Origin: an uncultured Ardenticatenales bacterium
GTDB lineage: Bacteria; Chloroflexota; Anaerolineae; Ardenticatenales; JAADHH01
NCBI GenBank assembly: GCA_964517425.1
Contig: CAZFFM010000001.1
Location: 1-36,174, forward strand
Direction: 5' to 3'
DNA: 36,174 bases
Within the stretch, counting starts at the first letter, position 1. Each line of letters begins with the position of its first letter. A program made the translations under genes and the position numbers. Under the pieces are notes generated by a model, which saw only the letters and a list, made by a program, of their open reading frames with translations, had not been told where the DNA came from and did no database searches. Positions 8,354-27,629 of the stretch are shown one piece after another.

Positions 8354-8434
8354 AAAACATGCCCAGACGCCCTCTGCTCCTTTCTGCATACATGGTCCCG
8401 CTGCAGGGTCGCTCCACGCTCCACGTTCCCCACT

Positions 8435-11484: not shown

Positions 11485-12028
11485 CCCTCCCGAGCTGCCC
11501 ACCCTGATCCCGCTGCATGGCCGCCACCCGTTCGCGGATCGCCTCGTCGGCCAGACCGAGCATCTTCGCGGCGAGCAGGGCCGCGCCGGCCGGCGCCAGC
11601 ACGACGGCCGGGGCCACGCCCGACGGCATACGCAGCGAGGAGAAGACATCCACCATCGCCCAGTCCGGCGACAGCGGCGGACAGGCGATGACCGGCGCAG
11701 TCACGTTCGCGTCCACCAGCCCGGACAGCGCGTTCGACCGCCCGGCCACGGTGATGTACACCTTGCGGCGCGGGTCTGCCTCGTACGCCGCCAACATGTC
11801 CAGCAAATGTCGCACGCTCTTGTGCGCGGAAGCCACCCGCAGCTCGCACGGCACACCGAACTCCTCTAGCGCCGCCGCGATCTGCTCCCCGTGCTCCCGA
11901 TCCGACACCGACCCCATGATGATGGGAACGATACAGCCGTTTCGATTTTGGATTTTGGATTTTGGATTTTGGATTTTTCGATTCCCCGCTTCCTGATACG
12001 CATCGCGTGTTGCGTAATCCGTTGACAA
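11456..12028 (-). CDS. purE: N5-carboxyaminoimidazole ribonucleotide mutase
   Basis: Conserved core IVPIIMGSVSD...ASAHK...AGRSNALSG. The only canonical in-frame start upstream of the core is the TTG at 12028, inside a heptad array, so the start is uncertain. Confidence 0.85.
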   Translation of the reverse strand: MSTDYATRDAYQEAGNRKIQNPKSKIQNRNGCIVPIIMGSVSDREHGEQIAAALEEFGVPCELRVASAHKSVRHLLDMLAAYEADPRRKVYITVAGRSNALSGLVDANVTAPVIACPPLSPDWAMVDVFSSLRMPSGVAPAVVLAPAGAALLAAKMLGLADEAIRERVAAMQRDQGGQLGRDDQDVRRPD

Positions 12029-18170: not shown

Positions 18171-18254
18171 CACGCACCACGCACCACGCTCCACGCCCTA
18201 CGCCCCACGCCCTACGCCCCACGCCCTACGCCCCACGCCCTACGCCCCACGCCC
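18171..18254. repeat. Heptad array, 12 in-register units (CACGCCC/TACGCCC alternation)
   Basis: cacgcac x2, cacgctc, then (cacgccc tacgccc)x4.5. The array supplies the last 8 codons and the TAG stop of purB. Confidence 0.85.
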
Positions 18255-19617
18255 CGGCCCGCTCCGGCGCGTTGCCCACGTAGCCTTCCACGGTCATCAG
18301 CGCCAGGACATCGCCGTCCGGCAGATAGGCAGTGATTCGCTCGTCGGCCGCCAGCCGGTCGGCCAGCGGGTTCGGCTCGCCGCGTCGTACGGCTGCCCAC
18401 GCAGCCAGGCTGTGCTCGCGGATCACCTCGTGCATCGCCTGGCGGTCGGCGCCGGCGCGGGCCAGGGCCATCAGCAGCGGCTCCGTGGCCGCAAAGGGGC
18501 CGTAGGTCGCCAGATTTTGCGCCATGCGATCCTCGTCAACCACCAATCCCTCGACGATTCGCCGAGCGCAGCGCAACATCTCGTCGGTGGCCAGGAACGC
18601 CTGCGGCAGAATCACGCGCCGGTTCGCCGAATCGTCCAGCGTGCGCTCCAGCAGCGAGTTGGCGGCGTTGTCCCAGGCGACCGCCGGCAGATCGCGCACC
18701 AGCCGCGCCAGCGAACAGATTTTCTCAGCGGTGATCGGATTGCGCTTGAAGGGCATGGCGGACGAGCCGACCTGCTTCGCGCCGAACGGCTCGCTCCATT
18801 CGCCAAAGGGGGGTGACTGCAACAGCCGCAGGTCGAACGCCAGCTTGTGCAGCGACGCGGCCGCCCCGGCCAGCGCGCTCAGCACCTGCCAGTCCTGCCG
18901 GCGGGGATAGACCTGGGAAGTCACCGGCCACGCCTCCAGGCCCAAATCGGCCATCACCTGCGCTTCCATTTCAGCAGCGGACATCCCCGTCCCCTCGAGC
19001 AGTTTCGTGTACGAGGCTGCCGTACCGACCGCGCCCTTCAGTCCCTTGCCGCGCACGTCATCCCGCGCACGGGCGACGGCCTGCCGGTCGGCCAGCAAGT
19101 CCTGTGCATAGAGGGCCAGGCGGTAGCCGAGCGTGGTCGGCTCCGCCGGCTGGATGTGCGTGTAGGCCAGGCAAGGCGTCTTGGCGTAGCGCTCGATCTG
19201 TGCGGCCAGCGCTTCGAGCAGCGCGTCCAGCCCGGCCAGGATCAGGTCGAGCGAATCGCGCAGACGCAGGGCATCGGCGTTGTCCTCGATGTCCATGCTG
19301 GTCGCGCCGAGGTGCAGCTTGCCGCCGCCGGTCGGGCACTGCTCGGCGAAGGTGCGCAGCTCGGCCATCAGGTCGTGGTGGATTTCGGCCTCGATCTCCT
19401 GCGCCCGCTCGAAATCCACGTCATCCTGGTGCGCCTGCAAATCGGCCAGCTCGTCCGCTGAGATCAGACCGGCGTGGTGCTGCGCTGCCGCCAGTGCCAC
19501 CCAAACGCGTCGCCAGAGTCGCCGCTTGTTGGTCTCGCTCCACACCCTGCGCATCTCCGGCGAACCGTAGCGCCAGGTGAAGGGGGACAGAAATGTATCG
19601 TGTGTGTAAGAATTCAT
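18226..19617 (-). CDS. purB: Adenylosuccinate lyase
   Basis: 463 aa with HLGATSMDI and the GSSAMPFKRNP signature. GGAGG RBS lies upstream of the ATG at 19617. Confidence 0.95.
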   Translation of the reverse strand: MNSYTHDTFLSPFTWRYGSPEMRRVWSETNKRRLWRRVWVALAAAQHHAGLISADELADLQAHQDDVDFERAQEIEAEIHHDLMAELRTFAEQCPTGGGKLHLGATSMDIEDNADALRLRDSLDLILAGLDALLEALAAQIERYAKTPCLAYTHIQPAEPTTLGYRLALYAQDLLADRQAVARARDDVRGKGLKGAVGTAASYTKLLEGTGMSAAEMEAQVMADLGLEAWPVTSQVYPRRQDWQVLSALAGAAASLHKLAFDLRLLQSPPFGEWSEPFGAKQVGSSAMPFKRNPITAEKICSLARLVRDLPAVAWDNAANSLLERTLDDSANRRVILPQAFLATDEMLRCARRIVEGLVVDEDRMAQNLATYGPFAATEPLLMALARAGADRQAMHEVIREHSLAAWAAVRRGEPNPLADRLAADERITAYLPDGDVLALMTVEGYVGNAPERAGAWGVGRGA

Positions 19618-19626
19618 GGGCCTCCG

Positions 19627-19780
19627 GATTTTGGAATTTAGATTTTGGATTTTGGATTTCCGTGATATGTTTGCGCGTTGAAACGTTCCAACGTTTCACG
19701 TCCTCATGCTCCCCGCTCACCGCTCTACGCCCTCCGCTCCACGCTCCACGCTCTCCGCTCCACGCTCGGCGCTCTACGCG
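19627..19780. repeat. Heptad array, 22 in-register units filling the purQ-purB spacer
   Basis: gattttg gaattta gattttg gattttg gatttcc ... cacgtcc tcatgct ccccgct caccgct ctacgcc ctccgct ccacgct x2 ... A further 5 units at 19812-19846 lie inside the purQ 3-prime end. Confidence 0.85.
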
Positions 19781-20535
19781 CAGCCTACCGCACTCCGAAA
19801 CAGCCGCAACCCCACGCCCTCCGCTCCCCGCTCCACGCCCTCCGCCGAATGTGTCCAGGCCGGGTGTTGGTAGGGGGAGACGAAGCGTTCGGGGTGGGGC
19901 ATTAGGCCGAGAACGTTGCCGGCGGCGTTGCAGATTCCGGCGACCGCGTCCAGCGAGCCGTTCGGGTTGGCCGGATAGTCCGCTGCCGGACGGCCGTCGG
20001 GGGCAGCGTAGGTGAAGGCAATCTGCCCCTGCTCACGCCAGCAGGGCAGGTCACCCGCATCGGCGGGCACGAACTTCCCCTCGCCGTGGGCCACCGGCAA
20101 GGTGATCACCTCCGGCAGGTCTGCCGTCCACAGCGAGCGGCTTCGGTCCACGCGCAGGTGTACCCAGCGGCACTCGAATCGCCCGGAGTCGTTGGCCGTC
20201 AGCGTGGCCGCGGGGAGCAGGCCGGCCTTCACCAGCACCTGGAACCCGTTGCAGACGCCGAGCACCGGCTTGCCCGATTCGACGAAGCGCCACAGCGGTT
20301 CGCGCAGACGGTACACCAGGTCCACGGCGAGCAACTTGCCCGCGCCGAGTGCGTCGCCGTAGGTGAAGCCGCCGGGGATGGTCAGGATTTGGTAATCGTC
20401 CAGCCGCCGCTCCTCTCGCAGCAACTGGTTGACATGCACCAGTTCCGGCTCCGCGCCGGCCAGCCGCCACGCCTCTGCCGTCTCCCGGTCGCAATTCGAG
20501 CCGGGGCCTTGCAACACCAACACACGAGGTTTCAT
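19774..20535 (-). CDS. purQ: Phosphoribosylformylglycinamidine synthase, glutaminase subunit
   Basis: GVCNGFQ catalytic Cys, plus HGEG and MPHPER. The start is ATG 20535 (MKPRVLVLQ) or 20541. Confidence 0.9.
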   Translation of the reverse strand: MKPRVLVLQGPGSNCDRETAEAWRLAGAEPELVHVNQLLREERRLDDYQILTIPGGFTYGDALGAGKLLAVDLVYRLREPLWRFVESGKPVLGVCNGFQVLVKAGLLPAATLTANDSGRFECRWVHLRVDRSRSLWTADLPEVITLPVAHGEGKFVPADAGDLPCWREQGQIAFTYAAPDGRPAADYPANPNGSLDAVAGICNAAGNVLGLMPHPERFVSPYQHPAWTHSAEGVERGAEGVGLRLFRSAVGCA

Positions 20536-20550
20536 GGTCATTTTCGTTTC

Positions 20551-21117: not shown

Positions 21118-21576
21118 ATGAAACGAACCACATCGGGCGAGACCGATTTCGCGAGCTACCGCAAGGCCTGGCGACAGCGTTGGCGTCATGCCGAAGAACG
21201 CCGTCGAGAAAAGGCTTCCCGCGCACGCGCAGCAGCCGAATCTTGTGCACGTTTCCTTATCAAGACCTATCACGTTCACCGTGTCTACCTCTTTGGTTCA
21301 TTGGCCGGCTGGAGTCCCCTGCACGACCGGTCTGACATTGACTTGGCCGTGGAAGGACTGCCTCCCGGCCATGCTTACATTCAAGCCCTCACCCAACTAT
21401 GGCCACTCCTCCCACCTGGCATAGACCTGGACCTGGTTCCGATCGAAGACGCTCACCCCGACTTGGCGGAACGAATTCAAAGAGAAGGGATTTTGCTTTA
21501 TGATGGCACGACATTTTACCCCGCTATGCGCGGATATAGACCGCGAACTGAGCAACCTGAAACAATTGACCATTGA
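21118..21576 (+). CDS. Nucleotidyltransferase-domain protein (MNT-type antitoxin)
   Basis: Polymerase-beta-like NTase signature LFGSLAGWSPLHDRSDIDLAV (G-S ... D-x-D). Confidence 0.75.
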   Translation: MKRTTSGETDFASYRKAWRQRWRHAEERRREKASRARAAAESCARFLIKTYHVHRVYLFGSLAGWSPLHDRSDIDLAVEGLPPGHAYIQALTQLWPLLPPGIDLDLVPIEDAHPDLAERIQREGILLYDGTTFYPAMRGYRPRTEQPETIDH

Positions 21577-21976
21577 AGCCGAAGAAACCCTCGACGGAGC
21601 ACGACGGCAAGTCACTTTCCTGGAGCTGCGGGCTGCGGGTAGTATACTGCATGACTTCTACAGCGGTATCGAAAAGATATTTCGACGCATTGCCCTCGAA
21701 GTGGACGGGAGTTTGCCCGCAGGACCCGATTGGCACCTCCAACTGCTTCTTCGGATGGCCTCCCCCCTCCAAGAAGCACGCCCGGCAGTCATCAACGAAG
21801 ACCTGAAAAACCGGTTGGGCGAATACCTTCGTTTCCGACATCTCATACGCAACATTTACGGGTTTGAACTGCAATGGGATCGTTGCCATGACTTGCTGTA
21901 TGACCTCTTCGATCTGTTCGCCGACCTTTCCGCACAACTACAACGCTTTCAACAGTTCTTGCTCTCCCTCGAATGA
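21500..21976 (+). CDS. HEPN-like partner of the MNT protein (putative toxin)
   Basis: 158 aa and helical. The motif is YLRFRHLIRNIYGFEL, as I remember it from HEPN partners of MNT genes. It overlaps the MNT gene by 77 nt (an alternative TTG start lies at 21566). Its 3-prime end overlaps the convergent purSL 3-prime end by 39 nt. Confidence 0.55.
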   Translation: MMARHFTPLCADIDRELSNLKQLTIEAEETLDGARRQVTFLELRAAGSILHDFYSGIEKIFRRIALEVDGSLPAGPDWHLQLLLRMASPLQEARPAVINEDLKNRLGEYLRFRHLIRNIYGFELQWDRCHDLLYDLFDLFADLSAQLQRFQQFLLSLE

Positions 21977-24862
21977 CACCATCCCCTCCCCCCCCAGCAC
22001 CTCCCCCACCTGCGCCAACGGACAGCCGGCCAGCGCGGCCTCGAAGTTCGCGGCGTCCTCCGGGCGCACTTCCACCAGGAAGCGTCCGTTCGACTCGCTG
22101 AAGAGGATCGTGTCGGGGCGGGTCACGTCGGCGTCGCGCGGCACGCGGGCGAGGTCGAGCCGCAGGCCCAGCCGGCCGGCACGCGCCATCTCCGCGGCAG
22201 CCACGCCCAGTCCCCCGTCCGAGAGGTCGTGGCAGGCACGCACCAGCCCGTCGCGCATGGCGCGGTGCAGCGCGCGTACGGTCCGCGGCCCGCCCTCGGC
22301 CAACCCCGGCGCGCGTCGCCCAACAAATCCCTTTGCTTTGTAATACAGAGACCCGCCCATCTCATTGCGCGTCTGCCCGATGAGGTAGAGCCGATTTCCC
22401 GCTTCCTTTAGATCCATCGTCACCGCCCTACGCACATCCGGCACAATGCCCACTGCGGAGATGAGCAGTGTGCCCGGAATCGGGCGACGTTTGCCGGTCG
22501 CGTCCGCGTATTCGTTGTTCAGGCTGTCCTTGCCGGAGATGAAGGGCAAGCGGTAGGGCACGGCCCCGTCGTAGCACCCTTGCGCCGCGTGCAACAGCCC
22601 CCCCAGCCGGTCGGGGCGGCTCGGGTCGCCCCAGCAGAAATTGTCGAGGATCGCCACCCTCTCCGGGTCGGCACCGACAGCGACGACGTTGCGCAGCGCC
22701 TCGTCCACCGCCGAGACGGCCATCGCCCAGGGGTCAAGCGTGCCATAGCGCGGGTTGATGCCGCAACCGACGGCCACGCCACGCCAGCCGTTCGCCTCCA
22801 GCGGCTTGATCACCGCCCCGTCCGAGGGGCCGTCGCCGTGTGGCCCGACCAGCGGCTTGACCACCGTGCCCCCCTGTACCTCGTGGTCGTACCGGCGAAC
22901 GATGTCCGCCCGGCTGCGGACCGTGGGATGGGCCAGCAGCGCCTCCACCTCGCTGACCAGATCGTCCGGGCAGGGAAAATCGGGTTCGGGAAAATCGGGC
23001 GGTTCCCACGTGGCCTGCAAGTGACGGCGGGGACAGCCGCCGTGCAAGAACGTCACGCCCAACGCGCCGGCCGTCTTCCCATCGTAGCGCAGCGTCAATC
23101 GCCCGTCGCCGGTGAACTGGCCGATGACCGTGGCCTCCACATCCAGGTCGGCGCAGATCCGGATCACGCGTTCCACGTTCGCTGGCGGCACGGCCAGGAT
23201 CATCCGCTCCTGTGCTTCGGAGAGCCAGATTTCCCAGGGGGCCAGGCCCTGGTACTTGAGCGGCACACGTTCCAGGTGTACCGTTGCGCCGAGCTCGGCG
23301 GCCATTTCGCCGACGGATGAAGAGAGGCCGCCGCCGCCGCAATCGGTGATCGCGCTGTAGAGGCCGGCGTCACGTGCGACGAGGATCGCCTCCAGCATCT
23401 TCTTCTCGGTGATTGGGTCGCCAATCTGCACGGCGCTGCCGGCGATTTCGCCCGTCTCGTGGGTCAGCTCCAGCGAGGAGAAGGTCGCGCCGCGCAGCCC
23501 GTCCCGTCCGGTACGCCCACCGACCAGGACGATTTTGTCGCCGGCGCGCGGGTTCGTGCGGTGCAGGCCCTTCGGCGCAATGCCCAGGCAGCCGCAGTAG
23601 ACCAACGGGTTGCCGATGTAGCCTTCGTCATAGAGGATTGCGCCGTTGACCACCGGCACGCCCAGCTTGTTGCCGTAGTCTTCGATTCCGTGAACGACCC
23701 CGCTTTCGATCCGGCGGGGGTGCAGCACGCCGGCCGGCAAGTCGGCGAAGTCCAGGTCTTGCGGGCCGAAGCAGAGGACGTCGGTGGCGGCGAGGGGGCG
23801 CGCGGAGACCCCGATGATGTCGCGCACCACACCCCCCACGCCGGTGTTCGCGCCGCCGAAGGGTTCGATGGCCGAGGGGTGGTTGTGCGTCTCCACTTTG
23901 AAGGAAAGCTCCAGCTCGTCATCGAAATCGATCATGCCGGCGTTGTCCACGAAGGCGGAACGCACCCAGGGGCGGGCCGCTTGCGCAGTGGCCTGGCGGA
24001 TGTAGTCGAGCAGAGACCAGTCGCGCCCGTCGTCCAACGCGGGCGACCGGCGGGCGATCCGTCCGCGGAACGTCTTGTGCCCGCAGTGTTCGGACCAGGT
24101 CTGGGCCAGGGTTTCCAGTTCCAGGTCGGTGGGGTCGCGGCCCGCGTCGCGGAAGTAGGCCCGGATGGCCTGCATCTCGGCCAAGTCGAGCGAGAGGCGG
24201 CGTTCCGCGCTGATTTGTTCCAGGTCTGCATTCGACGCCTGGCGCAGGGGGACGATCTGCACATACCCCACCTGGCTGAGGTCCGGCGGTGCAAAGCCGG
24301 GTTGGGCCGCTCCTAACGTGTAGGTCTGGATGGCGTCGTTGCAGAGGAGGCGACGGGCAATGCGGTGGACCTGCGCTTCGCTCAGGTCGCCGGCCAGCTC
24401 GTAGCGCAGCCCTGTGCGCACCTGTCGCAGTCCCGTCACGCCGATGACCTGCGTGCCGTGGAGCAGCGCTTCCGCCTGTGCGTCGGTCACTCCGGGGCGG
24501 AGGGTGACTTCTACGGAATGCGTTTCGGTATTTCGATTTTGGATTTTGGATTTTGGATTTTGGATTGCTGTGTTGCCTATTGCGGGTTGTGGATCACGTT
24601 TCACGCTCCACGCTCCACGCTCGACGCTCCACGCTCCACGTGCCACGTGCCACGTCGTCTGCGTGACCGGATCGGCCAGCAGAGCGCGACAGATTGTTTC
24701 AACGTCGCCCTCTGTCAAACCACCGCGAAGGAAATAGAGATCGCAAACAACGACATTCTTTACCCCTGCGATTCCCAAATCGCGAATGGCGCGAGACACG
24801 GCATTTCCACGTGGATCGAACTGACCTTCCGAAAGGCACACATCGACGCGAAACGTTTTCAT
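21938..24862 (-). CDS. purL: Phosphoribosylformylglycinamidine synthase, PurS-PurS-PurL fusion
   Basis: One uninterrupted frame. It contains a PurS-like domain (MKTFRVDVCLSEGQFDPRGNAV...), a heptad-encoded linker, a second PurS-like domain (VEVTLRPGVTDAQAEA...), and then the PurL core (WSEHCGHKTF and two AIR-synthase-like repeats). The start is ATG 24862. Confidence 0.85.
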   Translation of the reverse strand: MKTFRVDVCLSEGQFDPRGNAVSRAIRDLGIAGVKNVVVCDLYFLRGGLTEGDVETICRALLADPVTQTTWHVARGAWSVERGAWSVKRDPQPAIGNTAIQNPKSKIQNRNTETHSVEVTLRPGVTDAQAEALLHGTQVIGVTGLRQVRTGLRYELAGDLSEAQVHRIARRLLCNDAIQTYTLGAAQPGFAPPDLSQVGYVQIVPLRQASNADLEQISAERRLSLDLAEMQAIRAYFRDAGRDPTDLELETLAQTWSEHCGHKTFRGRIARRSPALDDGRDWSLLDYIRQATAQAARPWVRSAFVDNAGMIDFDDELELSFKVETHNHPSAIEPFGGANTGVGGVVRDIIGVSARPLAATDVLCFGPQDLDFADLPAGVLHPRRIESGVVHGIEDYGNKLGVPVVNGAILYDEGYIGNPLVYCGCLGIAPKGLHRTNPRAGDKIVLVGGRTGRDGLRGATFSSLELTHETGEIAGSAVQIGDPITEKKMLEAILVARDAGLYSAITDCGGGGLSSSVGEMAAELGATVHLERVPLKYQGLAPWEIWLSEAQERMILAVPPANVERVIRICADLDVEATVIGQFTGDGRLTLRYDGKTAGALGVTFLHGGCPRRHLQATWEPPDFPEPDFPCPDDLVSEVEALLAHPTVRSRADIVRRYDHEVQGGTVVKPLVGPHGDGPSDGAVIKPLEANGWRGVAVGCGINPRYGTLDPWAMAVSAVDEALRNVVAVGADPERVAILDNFCWGDPSRPDRLGGLLHAAQGCYDGAVPYRLPFISGKDSLNNEYADATGKRRPIPGTLLISAVGIVPDVRRAVTMDLKEAGNRLYLIGQTRNEMGGSLYYKAKGFVGRRAPGLAEGGPRTVRALHRAMRDGLVRACHDLSDGGLGVAAAEMARAGRLGLRLDLARVPRDADVTRPDTILFSESNGRFLVEVRPEDAANFEAALAGCPLAQVGEVLGGEGMVSFEGEQELLKAL
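24535..24653. repeat. Composite heptad array, 17 in-register units (119 nt), inside the purSL ORF
   Basis: (gattttg)x4 gattgct gtgttgc ctattgc gggttgt ggatcac gtttcac (gctccac)x2 gctcgac (gctccac)x2 (gtgccac)x2. Confidence 0.85.
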
Positions 24863-27503: not shown

Positions 27504-27629
27504 GATTTTGGATTTTAGATTTGCGATTTTGGATTGGTGGGAAACGTGGTACGTATTGCGTGATGCGTGTTGCGTCTGACGCATCACGCATCACGTTTTA
27601 CCTGACACGTGACACTTGACACCTGACAC
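27504..27629. repeat. Composite heptad array, 18 in-register units (126 nt)
   Basis: gattttg gatttta gatttgc gattttg gattggt gggaaac gtggtac gtattgc gtgatgc gtgttgc gtctgac gcatcac x2 gttttac ctgacac gtgacac ttgacac ctgacac. Confidence 0.9.
27559..27600 (+). terminator. Intrinsic terminator of lepB, built from inverted heptads
   Basis: An 18-bp stem pairs cgtgatgcgtgttgcgtc with gacgcatcacgcatcacg, with one mismatch. It is followed by TTTT and lies 68 nt after the lepB stop. Confidence 0.6.

Follow-up and report, generated by a model that had tools for sequence, protein, structure and literature searches.

The window analysed here is the whole 36,174-nt stretch of contig CAZFFM010000001.1 from an uncultured Ardenticatenales bacterium, and all coordinates, those of the repeat array included, refer to that stretch. 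On its minus strand it carries purSL (21938..24862), which encodes a fused purine enzyme of 974 aa, and inside this intact open reading frame (ORF) lies a heptanucleotide array at 24653-24535, again on the minus strand, of 119 nt or exactly 17 phased heptads. A previous examination of the same DNA, below called the sequence-only reading, had proposed that seventeen in-register heptads at 24535-24653 are translated as the linker between two PurS-like domains. The array is confirmed and its translation as a linker is supported: a listing of the heptads and Tandem Repeats Finder (TRF) recover the array, and the ORF reads through it, matches PurS families in Pfam and PurS chains in the PDB on either side, and is fused in all relatives. 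The relatives compared comprise, together with the window genome (G000), the metagenome-assembled genomes (MAGs) G001-G003, that is four MAGs from two genera, and two relatives from JGI metagenomes (P0003 and P0004).

According to Pfam and TIGR01736, the purSL product consists of a PurS-like domain, a linker, a second PurS domain, an FGAR-AT linker and a small-type PurL. Pfam assigns two stretches to PurS, followed by FGAR-AT_linker (PF18072) and two copies each of AIRS (PF00586) and AIRS_C (PF02769), and the ORF matches TIGR01736 (PurL) with 602.8 bits (E 8.5e-181), above the cut-off of 525.75. Domain 1 (residues 1-69; 24656..24862, minus strand) matches PF02700 at 24656-24853 with 36.5 bits, and domain 2 (residues 114-183; 24314..24523, minus strand) matches it at 24314-24517, i.e., residues 116-182, with 47 bits, both over the cut-off. 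In a phmmer comparison with the PurS chains of the PDB, residues 6-67 align with 2yx5 of M. jannaschii and residues 114-182 with 8j3n. A search of the 89%-complete MAG with PF02700 returned no other PurS domains. With two PurS-like domains, an FGAR-AT linker and a duplicated AIRS/AIRS_C core the gene is a PurSL fusion. It is not a single-chain large PurL: the glutaminase is not fused, Pfam detects no GATase_5 domain in the ORF, and the large-PurL models TIGR01735, TIGR01857 and NF003672 all score under their cut-offs. An identical 974-aa protein is present among public gene calls.

Read along the minus strand, the 17 heptads are GTGGCAC x2, GTGGAGC x2, GTCGAGC, GTGGAGC x2, GTGAAAC and GTGATCC, followed by ACAACCC, GCAATAG, GCAACAC, AGCAATC and CAAAATC x4. 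The array is therefore a composite of about 8 GTGGCAC/GTGGAGC units, about 5 degenerate ACGCAAC-like units and 4.6 ATCCAAA units. About 9 units are exact copies of GTGGAGC or ATCCAAA and about 5 more deviate from GTGGAGC by one or two bases, while the middle of the array is decayed. TRF resolves two period-7 arrays, 24602-24655 and 24531-24566, with a gap of exactly 35 nt (5x7) between them. The first (24602..24655, scores 71 and 40) is made of GTGGCAC/GTGGAGC heptads of a family dispersed in the genome and encodes (T)WHVARGAWSVERGAWSV. The 35 nt in between (24567..24601) hold degenerate ACGCAAC-type heptads, recognised from their sequence and from a homologous block in G002, and encode KRDPQPAIGNTA. 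The second array (24531..24566; period 7, 5.1 copies, 96% matches, score 65) contains 4.6 perfect copies of ATCCAAA and encodes IQNPKSKIQN. A decayed CGAAAC-type tail follows at 24521..24530, which encodes part of RNTET and in whose place G003 has clean CCGAAAC/TCGAAAC arrays. All four parts read on the minus strand. The decayed units GAAATAC and CGAAACG span 24521-24534, so that the repeat-derived zone reaches 24521, their first 4 nt overlapping the ATCCAAA part. Such an accumulation of heptads is far above chance expectation: GTGGAGCGTGGAGC, with at most one mismatch, has 8 matches in the window against 0.03 expected from shuffles.

Within the ORF the array is read as ARGAWSVERGAWSV...IQNPKSKIQNRN without a stop and corresponds to residues ~70-110 of the product. 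The three unit types GTGGAGC, ACGCAAC and ATCCAAA contain no stop trinucleotides and are open in all six frames, which is a condition for heptad units surviving inside a gene. Not all of the array is necessarily linker. The motif W-H-V-A-R, which its first two heptads (GTGGCAC x2) encode, also occurs in relatives that lack this array (as WCVAR, WVVER), and for this reason these two units probably belong to the last strand of domain 1 rather than to pure linker. The array abuts native sequence resembling GTGGAGCG and may have been seeded there. RNA folding revealed no special fold or hairpin at the array (z = 0.28), which consists of direct repeats only.

More than 4,343 homologues covering residues 1-260 are present in databases; the named ones belong to Chloroflexota/Anaerolineae, and one JGI record is named 'PurSL'. 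In every relative searched whose N-terminus is complete, the PurS-PurS-PurL fusion is continuous, lacking both a stop codon behind domain 1 and a start codon ahead of domain 2. The ORF of the window shows the same, as the sequence-only reading had noted. Across 66 homologues F44, L62 and D64 of domain 1 are invariant and many other residues nearly so; to judge from this conservation, domain 1 is under purifying selection.

The linker is variable by comparison. Between the anchors LLADPV..PGVTD it measures 34-47 aa in 40 of 51 homologues, and the 67 aa of the window are the second longest. The inter-anchor length is 201 nt in G000, 192 nt in G002, 162 nt in G003 and 108 nt in G001, in each case in frame and with a different mixture of units; the linker of G001 has, with 36 aa at the array site, an ordinary length. 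The two JGI relatives, 81-83% identical overall, are likewise in frame and display relic repeats at the array site. Repeat-derived DNA thus occupies the linker site in all four MAGs and both metagenome relatives, and six out of six alleles are in frame. Between G000 and G002 only the central ACGCAAC block is recognisably homologous (QPAIGNT versus QPAIRNT), the latter being encoded by a clean ACGCAAT/ACGCAAC array, and the flanking arrays have been replaced. Metagenome-contig scans with the anchor patterns yielded no further array alleles (two unrelated chance matches), and the scan of genome contigs found only three MAGs already in the comparison.

Evolution of the linker by clean 21-nt steps was considered and rejected: the length differences between relatives are 9, 39 and 93 nt, which are not multiples of 21 and consequently speak against clean three-heptad stepping.

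Other repeats have been found at the same position. The linker of P0004 (L026:1501-4329) holds about four copies of the 8-nt motif ACGYTCCN, akin to the reverse complement of GGAGCGT, a relic repeat that occupies the same linker site but differs in period and runs in the opposite direction. Repeat-derived inserts are also present in PurSL linkers of other Anaerolineae (homologues P0044, P0090, P0017 and P0084), where peptides such as 'NRKSQIVNRKS', 'ISNLQSLISN' and 'HRGGAENAE...' are encountered and where the linker of P0044 reaches 129 aa with duplicated 20-aa blocks. For in-frame repeat DNA, the linker between the PurS domains appears to be a hotspot in general.

An AlphaFold2 model of the purSL product built on the 66 homologues has a mean pLDDT of 84.8 and a pTM of 0.88. 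Domain 1 adopts a b-a-b-b-a fold (pLDDT 83-92), and domain 2 is likewise a confident PurS fold. Between these two folds, residues 70-83 and 91-111 are the sole N-terminal segments with a pLDDT below 50. The array-encoded linker is hence predicted to be disordered, the array region making up about 40 disordered residues. As a whole, the model superposes best on large PurL (human PFAS 9nb3 with a TMq of 0.85, Salmonella 1t3t with 0.79) compared with 0.64 for the small PurL 3viu. By this superposition and the lack of a GATase domain, the purSL product is a large-PurL-like enzyme minus the glutaminase domain.

The array in purSL is not a singular feature of this genome. TRF reports periods of 7, 14 or 21 in 680 of its 1200 genome-wide rows, and 264 heptad loci were counted in G000, most of them (~190) intergenic, 42 at contig ends and a minority within genes. 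Searches with three consecutive units gave 53 matches for GTGGAGC x3 and 36 for ATCCAAA x3, and none for the reversed controls. The heptads accordingly constitute a dispersed heptanucleotide tandem-repeat family (STRR-like / LSSR), with many loci that are mostly intergenic. Relative to co-directional flanking genes the units are predominantly in sense orientation (GTGGAGC 18:0, ATCCAAA 8:1, ACGCAAC 35:7, ACATCTG-type 16:6), and the order GTGGAGC, ACGCAAC, ATCCAAA/CGAAAC is found again at other loci. The unit families are concentrated in this family of MAGs. An enrichment for stop-free heptad units, as expected under selection for translatability, was rejected, as 48% of the runs are stop-free on both strands versus 69% of random genomic 7-mers.

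Several observations accompany this census. Sense-oriented arrays in the window are exemplified by those at 8411, 11940-11977, 18171-18255 and 19626-19779. The cause of the polarity could lie in transcription, in the replication strand or in an RNA function. A TTTGGAT array at 27504-27535 has the absolute strand seen in the minus-strand gene block, yet is flanked by plus-strand genes; as one of the rare antisense arrays it may point to a replication-strand polarity. Outside the family the distribution across the class is patchy: ATCCAAA x3 has 328 matches in G023 (5.8 Mb, same class, different family), whose PurSL linker carries no array, 11 in G025 and 3 in G009. With 42 of the 264 arrays at contig ends, heptad repeats are a main cause of the fragmentation of this 368-contig MAG, and assembled array lengths call for caution.

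Translated arrays are likewise not restricted to purSL. In at least four other proteins of G000, in-frame heptad arrays are spanned by Pfam domain alignments. They account for four 'SKIQNPKSKI' loops in a GT4/GT1 glycosyltransferase, for an insert of 37 aa in a Cu-oxidase_4 (YfiH-like) protein, for two inserts in a CCG-domain protein and for one of 27 aa, 'PGSVERGAWSVGAGGQGSNPKSAIQNP', in the HATPase_c domain of a histidine kinase (C35:10260-11552, C43:11405-12406 and C187:4968-6407 on the minus strand, C31:8395-11664 on the plus strand). The sequence-only reading had put forward the peptide IQNPK as diagnostic of the linker, but the genome contains it 51 times when translated in six frames, and it is for this reason not specific. 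DPQPAIGNTAIQNPK, which spans the linker, and ALLADPVTQTTWHVAR are, by contrast, tryptic peptides unique in the genome.

We interpret the purSL array as tolerated repeat DNA, a local copy of the genome-wide heptad family that is translated in a variable linker, and consider this explanation quite probable. The array would represent one copy of the composite, sense-oriented family (GTGGAGC-type, ACGCAAC-type, then ATCCAAA/CCGAAAC-type), situated in the naturally variable and presumably disordered linker of a conserved PurS'-PurS-PurL fusion. Because the unit types are free of stops and the inserted length is in frame, the array would simply be translated, and translation would add ~25-30 hydrophilic low-complexity residues (ARGAWSVERGAWSV...IQNPKSKIQN) to the interdomain tether. 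The two tethered domains may pack in the manner of a PurS dimer or of the large-PurL N-domain. Length variants that are out of frame would be removed by purifying selection; in-frame gain, loss and replacement of units would continue, with the consequence that the linker sequence turns over fast between close relatives. We infer that the array is passenger DNA that serves no role specific to purL, and that the linker turns over by slippage or recombination.

However, we also have to consider several points that weigh against this explanation. Translation of the array and its homogeneity in the population are deduced from comparison only. By length of perfect tract, the ATCCAAA repeat with its 4.6 perfect copies ranks near the 90th percentile of the arrays of the genome; it is recent and has not been visibly purged. 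Arrays in genes are neither shorter nor more degenerate than intergenic arrays (Mann-Whitney p = 0.35, n = 12 vs 232), hence an extra selection against slippage-prone tracts in genes is not demonstrated. The strong sense polarity hints at an RNA-level or transcription-linked property, which a pure 'junk' model does not explain. The genes in the heptad census, finally, derive from our own crude scoring of ORFs.

The sequence-only reading had left the choice between a constrained array and a slippage-prone on/off switch. Constraint is the better supported of the two, and a contingency locus, in which slippage of the tract reversibly frameshifts purSL and generates purine-auxotrophic OFF and prototrophic ON cells, appears improbable. 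The frame argument behind it, put forward in the sequence-only reading for numbers of heptads that are not multiples of three, is sound: in simulations a gain or loss of one or two units truncates the product at aa 84-316, and a change of three units restores the full length. The perfect ATCCAAA tract is also long for this genome, and the strongly different array content of close relatives indicates that the site is mutable. Nevertheless, all six alleles are in frame, the length differences between relatives do not correspond to simple heptad steps, and there is no in-frame restart codon downstream of the array. The tracts are moreover short and interrupted (by GTCGAGC in mid-run), the longest perfect one having 4.6 units, where phase variation typically involves at least 8 units for 4-7-nt units and accepted or proposed cases comprise 8-38 units (PMC2651432). 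Those cases reside in or upstream of adhesin and iron-uptake genes, whereas purSL is a housekeeping gene. Since unrelated housekeeping and enzyme genes harbour similar arrays in frame, and ~190 others are intergenic, the array being one of 264, there is nothing purL-specific in its presence. The switch is left without support. Stops or restarts by non-canonical signals, or a contig mis-assembled across the repeat, would mean that the array is not part of one translated chain. Repeats often break this assembly, as the arrays at contig ends illustrate, but the ORF is continuous and in frame in four independently assembled MAGs and two metagenome contigs, and the 119-nt array is shorter than typical reads. 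The fusion without internal stop or start is standard in more than 4,000 repeat-free homologues, domain 2 lacks a separate start codon and domain 1 is under purifying selection, all of which makes separate chains or an assembly error highly improbable.

A selected function of the array, either as a linker of tuned length and flexibility or as an RNA-level signal (e.g., for binding or processing) that the intergenic arrays of the pur cluster would also carry and that would bring purSL under common regulation, is unlikely as well. The sense orientation of GTGGAGC, ATCCAAA and ACGCAAC units would fit such a role, as would the recurrence of the tripartite order at other loci, the persistent occupation of the linker site across two genera, and the many arrays by which the purine cluster in the window is punctuated. 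Conversely, outgroups manage with non-repeat linkers of 34-47 aa, G001 has a linker of ordinary length, the unit types differ between relatives, and the array forms no stable RNA structure. The polarity could also reflect the replication strand or a mutational bias, which are inseparable on MAG contigs. The more far-reaching proposition that the sense-oriented composite arrays are functional in general, with the copy in purSL contributing to a shared control of purine-cluster mRNA or acting as a low-frequency reversible frameshift switch that generates purine-auxotrophic subpopulations, is in our view an improbable one.

The closest described counterparts of the array are dispersed heptanucleotide repeats of other bacteria. 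None of the 39 heptad units listed for this genome is known as a unit of the cyanobacterial STRR, which in the strict sense are defined by specific unit sequences in heterocystous cyanobacteria, and with a host from Chloroflexota the family is presumably not STRR sensu stricto. The resemblance is nonetheless extensive, as in STRR and TAACTGA repeats 7-nt units likewise form short tandem sets, often mixed with related heptamers, at hundreds of mostly intergenic loci with an orientation bias relative to genes, occasional translated copies, and indels in 7-nt steps between strains. Differences concern the unit sequences (here GTGGAGC, ACGCAAC, ATCCAAA and others), the phylum (here Chloroflexota, Ardenticatenales) and the long composite of 17-19 units inside a housekeeping enzyme. 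For the STRR, with their 7-bp units, no function is known (PMC2670836). In marine Beggiatoaceae, cyanobacteria and Bacteroidetes, the TAACTGA repeats are oriented and mostly intergenic, with rare copies translated in variable surface loops, e.g., of an RpoC'-like ORF; according to their authors, modular proteins might tolerate such repeats between their modules (PMC4679880). TAACTGA contains stops in forward orientation, in contrast to the purSL units with their six open frames.

The phase-variable simple sequence repeats of H. influenzae resemble the array in their 7-nt units in or upstream of a gene, where a change of one unit shifts the frame. They comprise TGAAAGA x13-38 in the hmw promoters, and AATTTTG x14 and AACAACC x8-13 within ORFs (PMC2651432). 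These repeats are perfect, with 8-38 units, belong to adhesin and iron-uptake genes and have out-of-frame alleles between strains; the purSL array has at most 4.6 perfect units in a housekeeping gene with all alleles in frame. A different parallel is provided by the Rickettsia palindromic elements (RPEs), which Ogata et al. in 2000 reportedly described as in-frame inserts in protein genes. RPEs are palindromic mobile elements of 100-150 bp. As with the purSL array, essential proteins tolerate these dispersed non-coding repeats, which are inserted in frame on the surface or in a linker and are translated as additional peptide without loss of function. The purSL array is, by contrast, a direct tandem repeat without a hairpin, and nothing indicates transposition.

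With regard to the enzyme itself, the N-terminal domain of large PurL (Salmonella 1T3T, human PFAS 9NB3) and PurSL-type FGAM synthases likewise have two PurS-like b-a-b-b-a modules in front of the FGAR-AT linker and the AIRS/AIRS_C core. Large PurL differs by its fused glutaminase, in place of which the window has a separate purQ, and usual PurSL linkers differ from that of the window, which is ~25-30 residues longer between the PurS domains and built from heptanucleotides. Searches of the literature on such repeats in Chloroflexi, and on 'PurSL', gave nothing useful.

With the PurSL of an Ardenticatenales bacterium, the array adds a new example to a kind of repeat that is known but poorly understood. 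It offers a clean case of dispersed simple-repeat DNA that has settled within an essential enzyme, in a pre-existing disordered interdomain tether, with units free of stops and a frame that is kept while the sequence turns over between sister genera. For annotation and proteomics it is a warning, as many unrelated proteins of this genome share peptides like IQNPKSK and ERGAWSV. The genome-wide pattern, with hundreds of sense-oriented composite arrays of which several are translated inside Pfam domains, may merit study more than the purSL linker.

The separate glutaminase subunit, purQ, is encoded at 19774..20541 on the minus strand (PF13507 GATase_5, 6e-75). Between purSL and purQ, on the opposite (plus) strand of the window, 21118-21976 encode a toxin-antitoxin pair of an MntA-like nucleotidyltransferase (Polbeta) and a HepT-like protein. 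A Polbeta gene is likewise located in the gap between purSL and purQ of the JGI relative L026.

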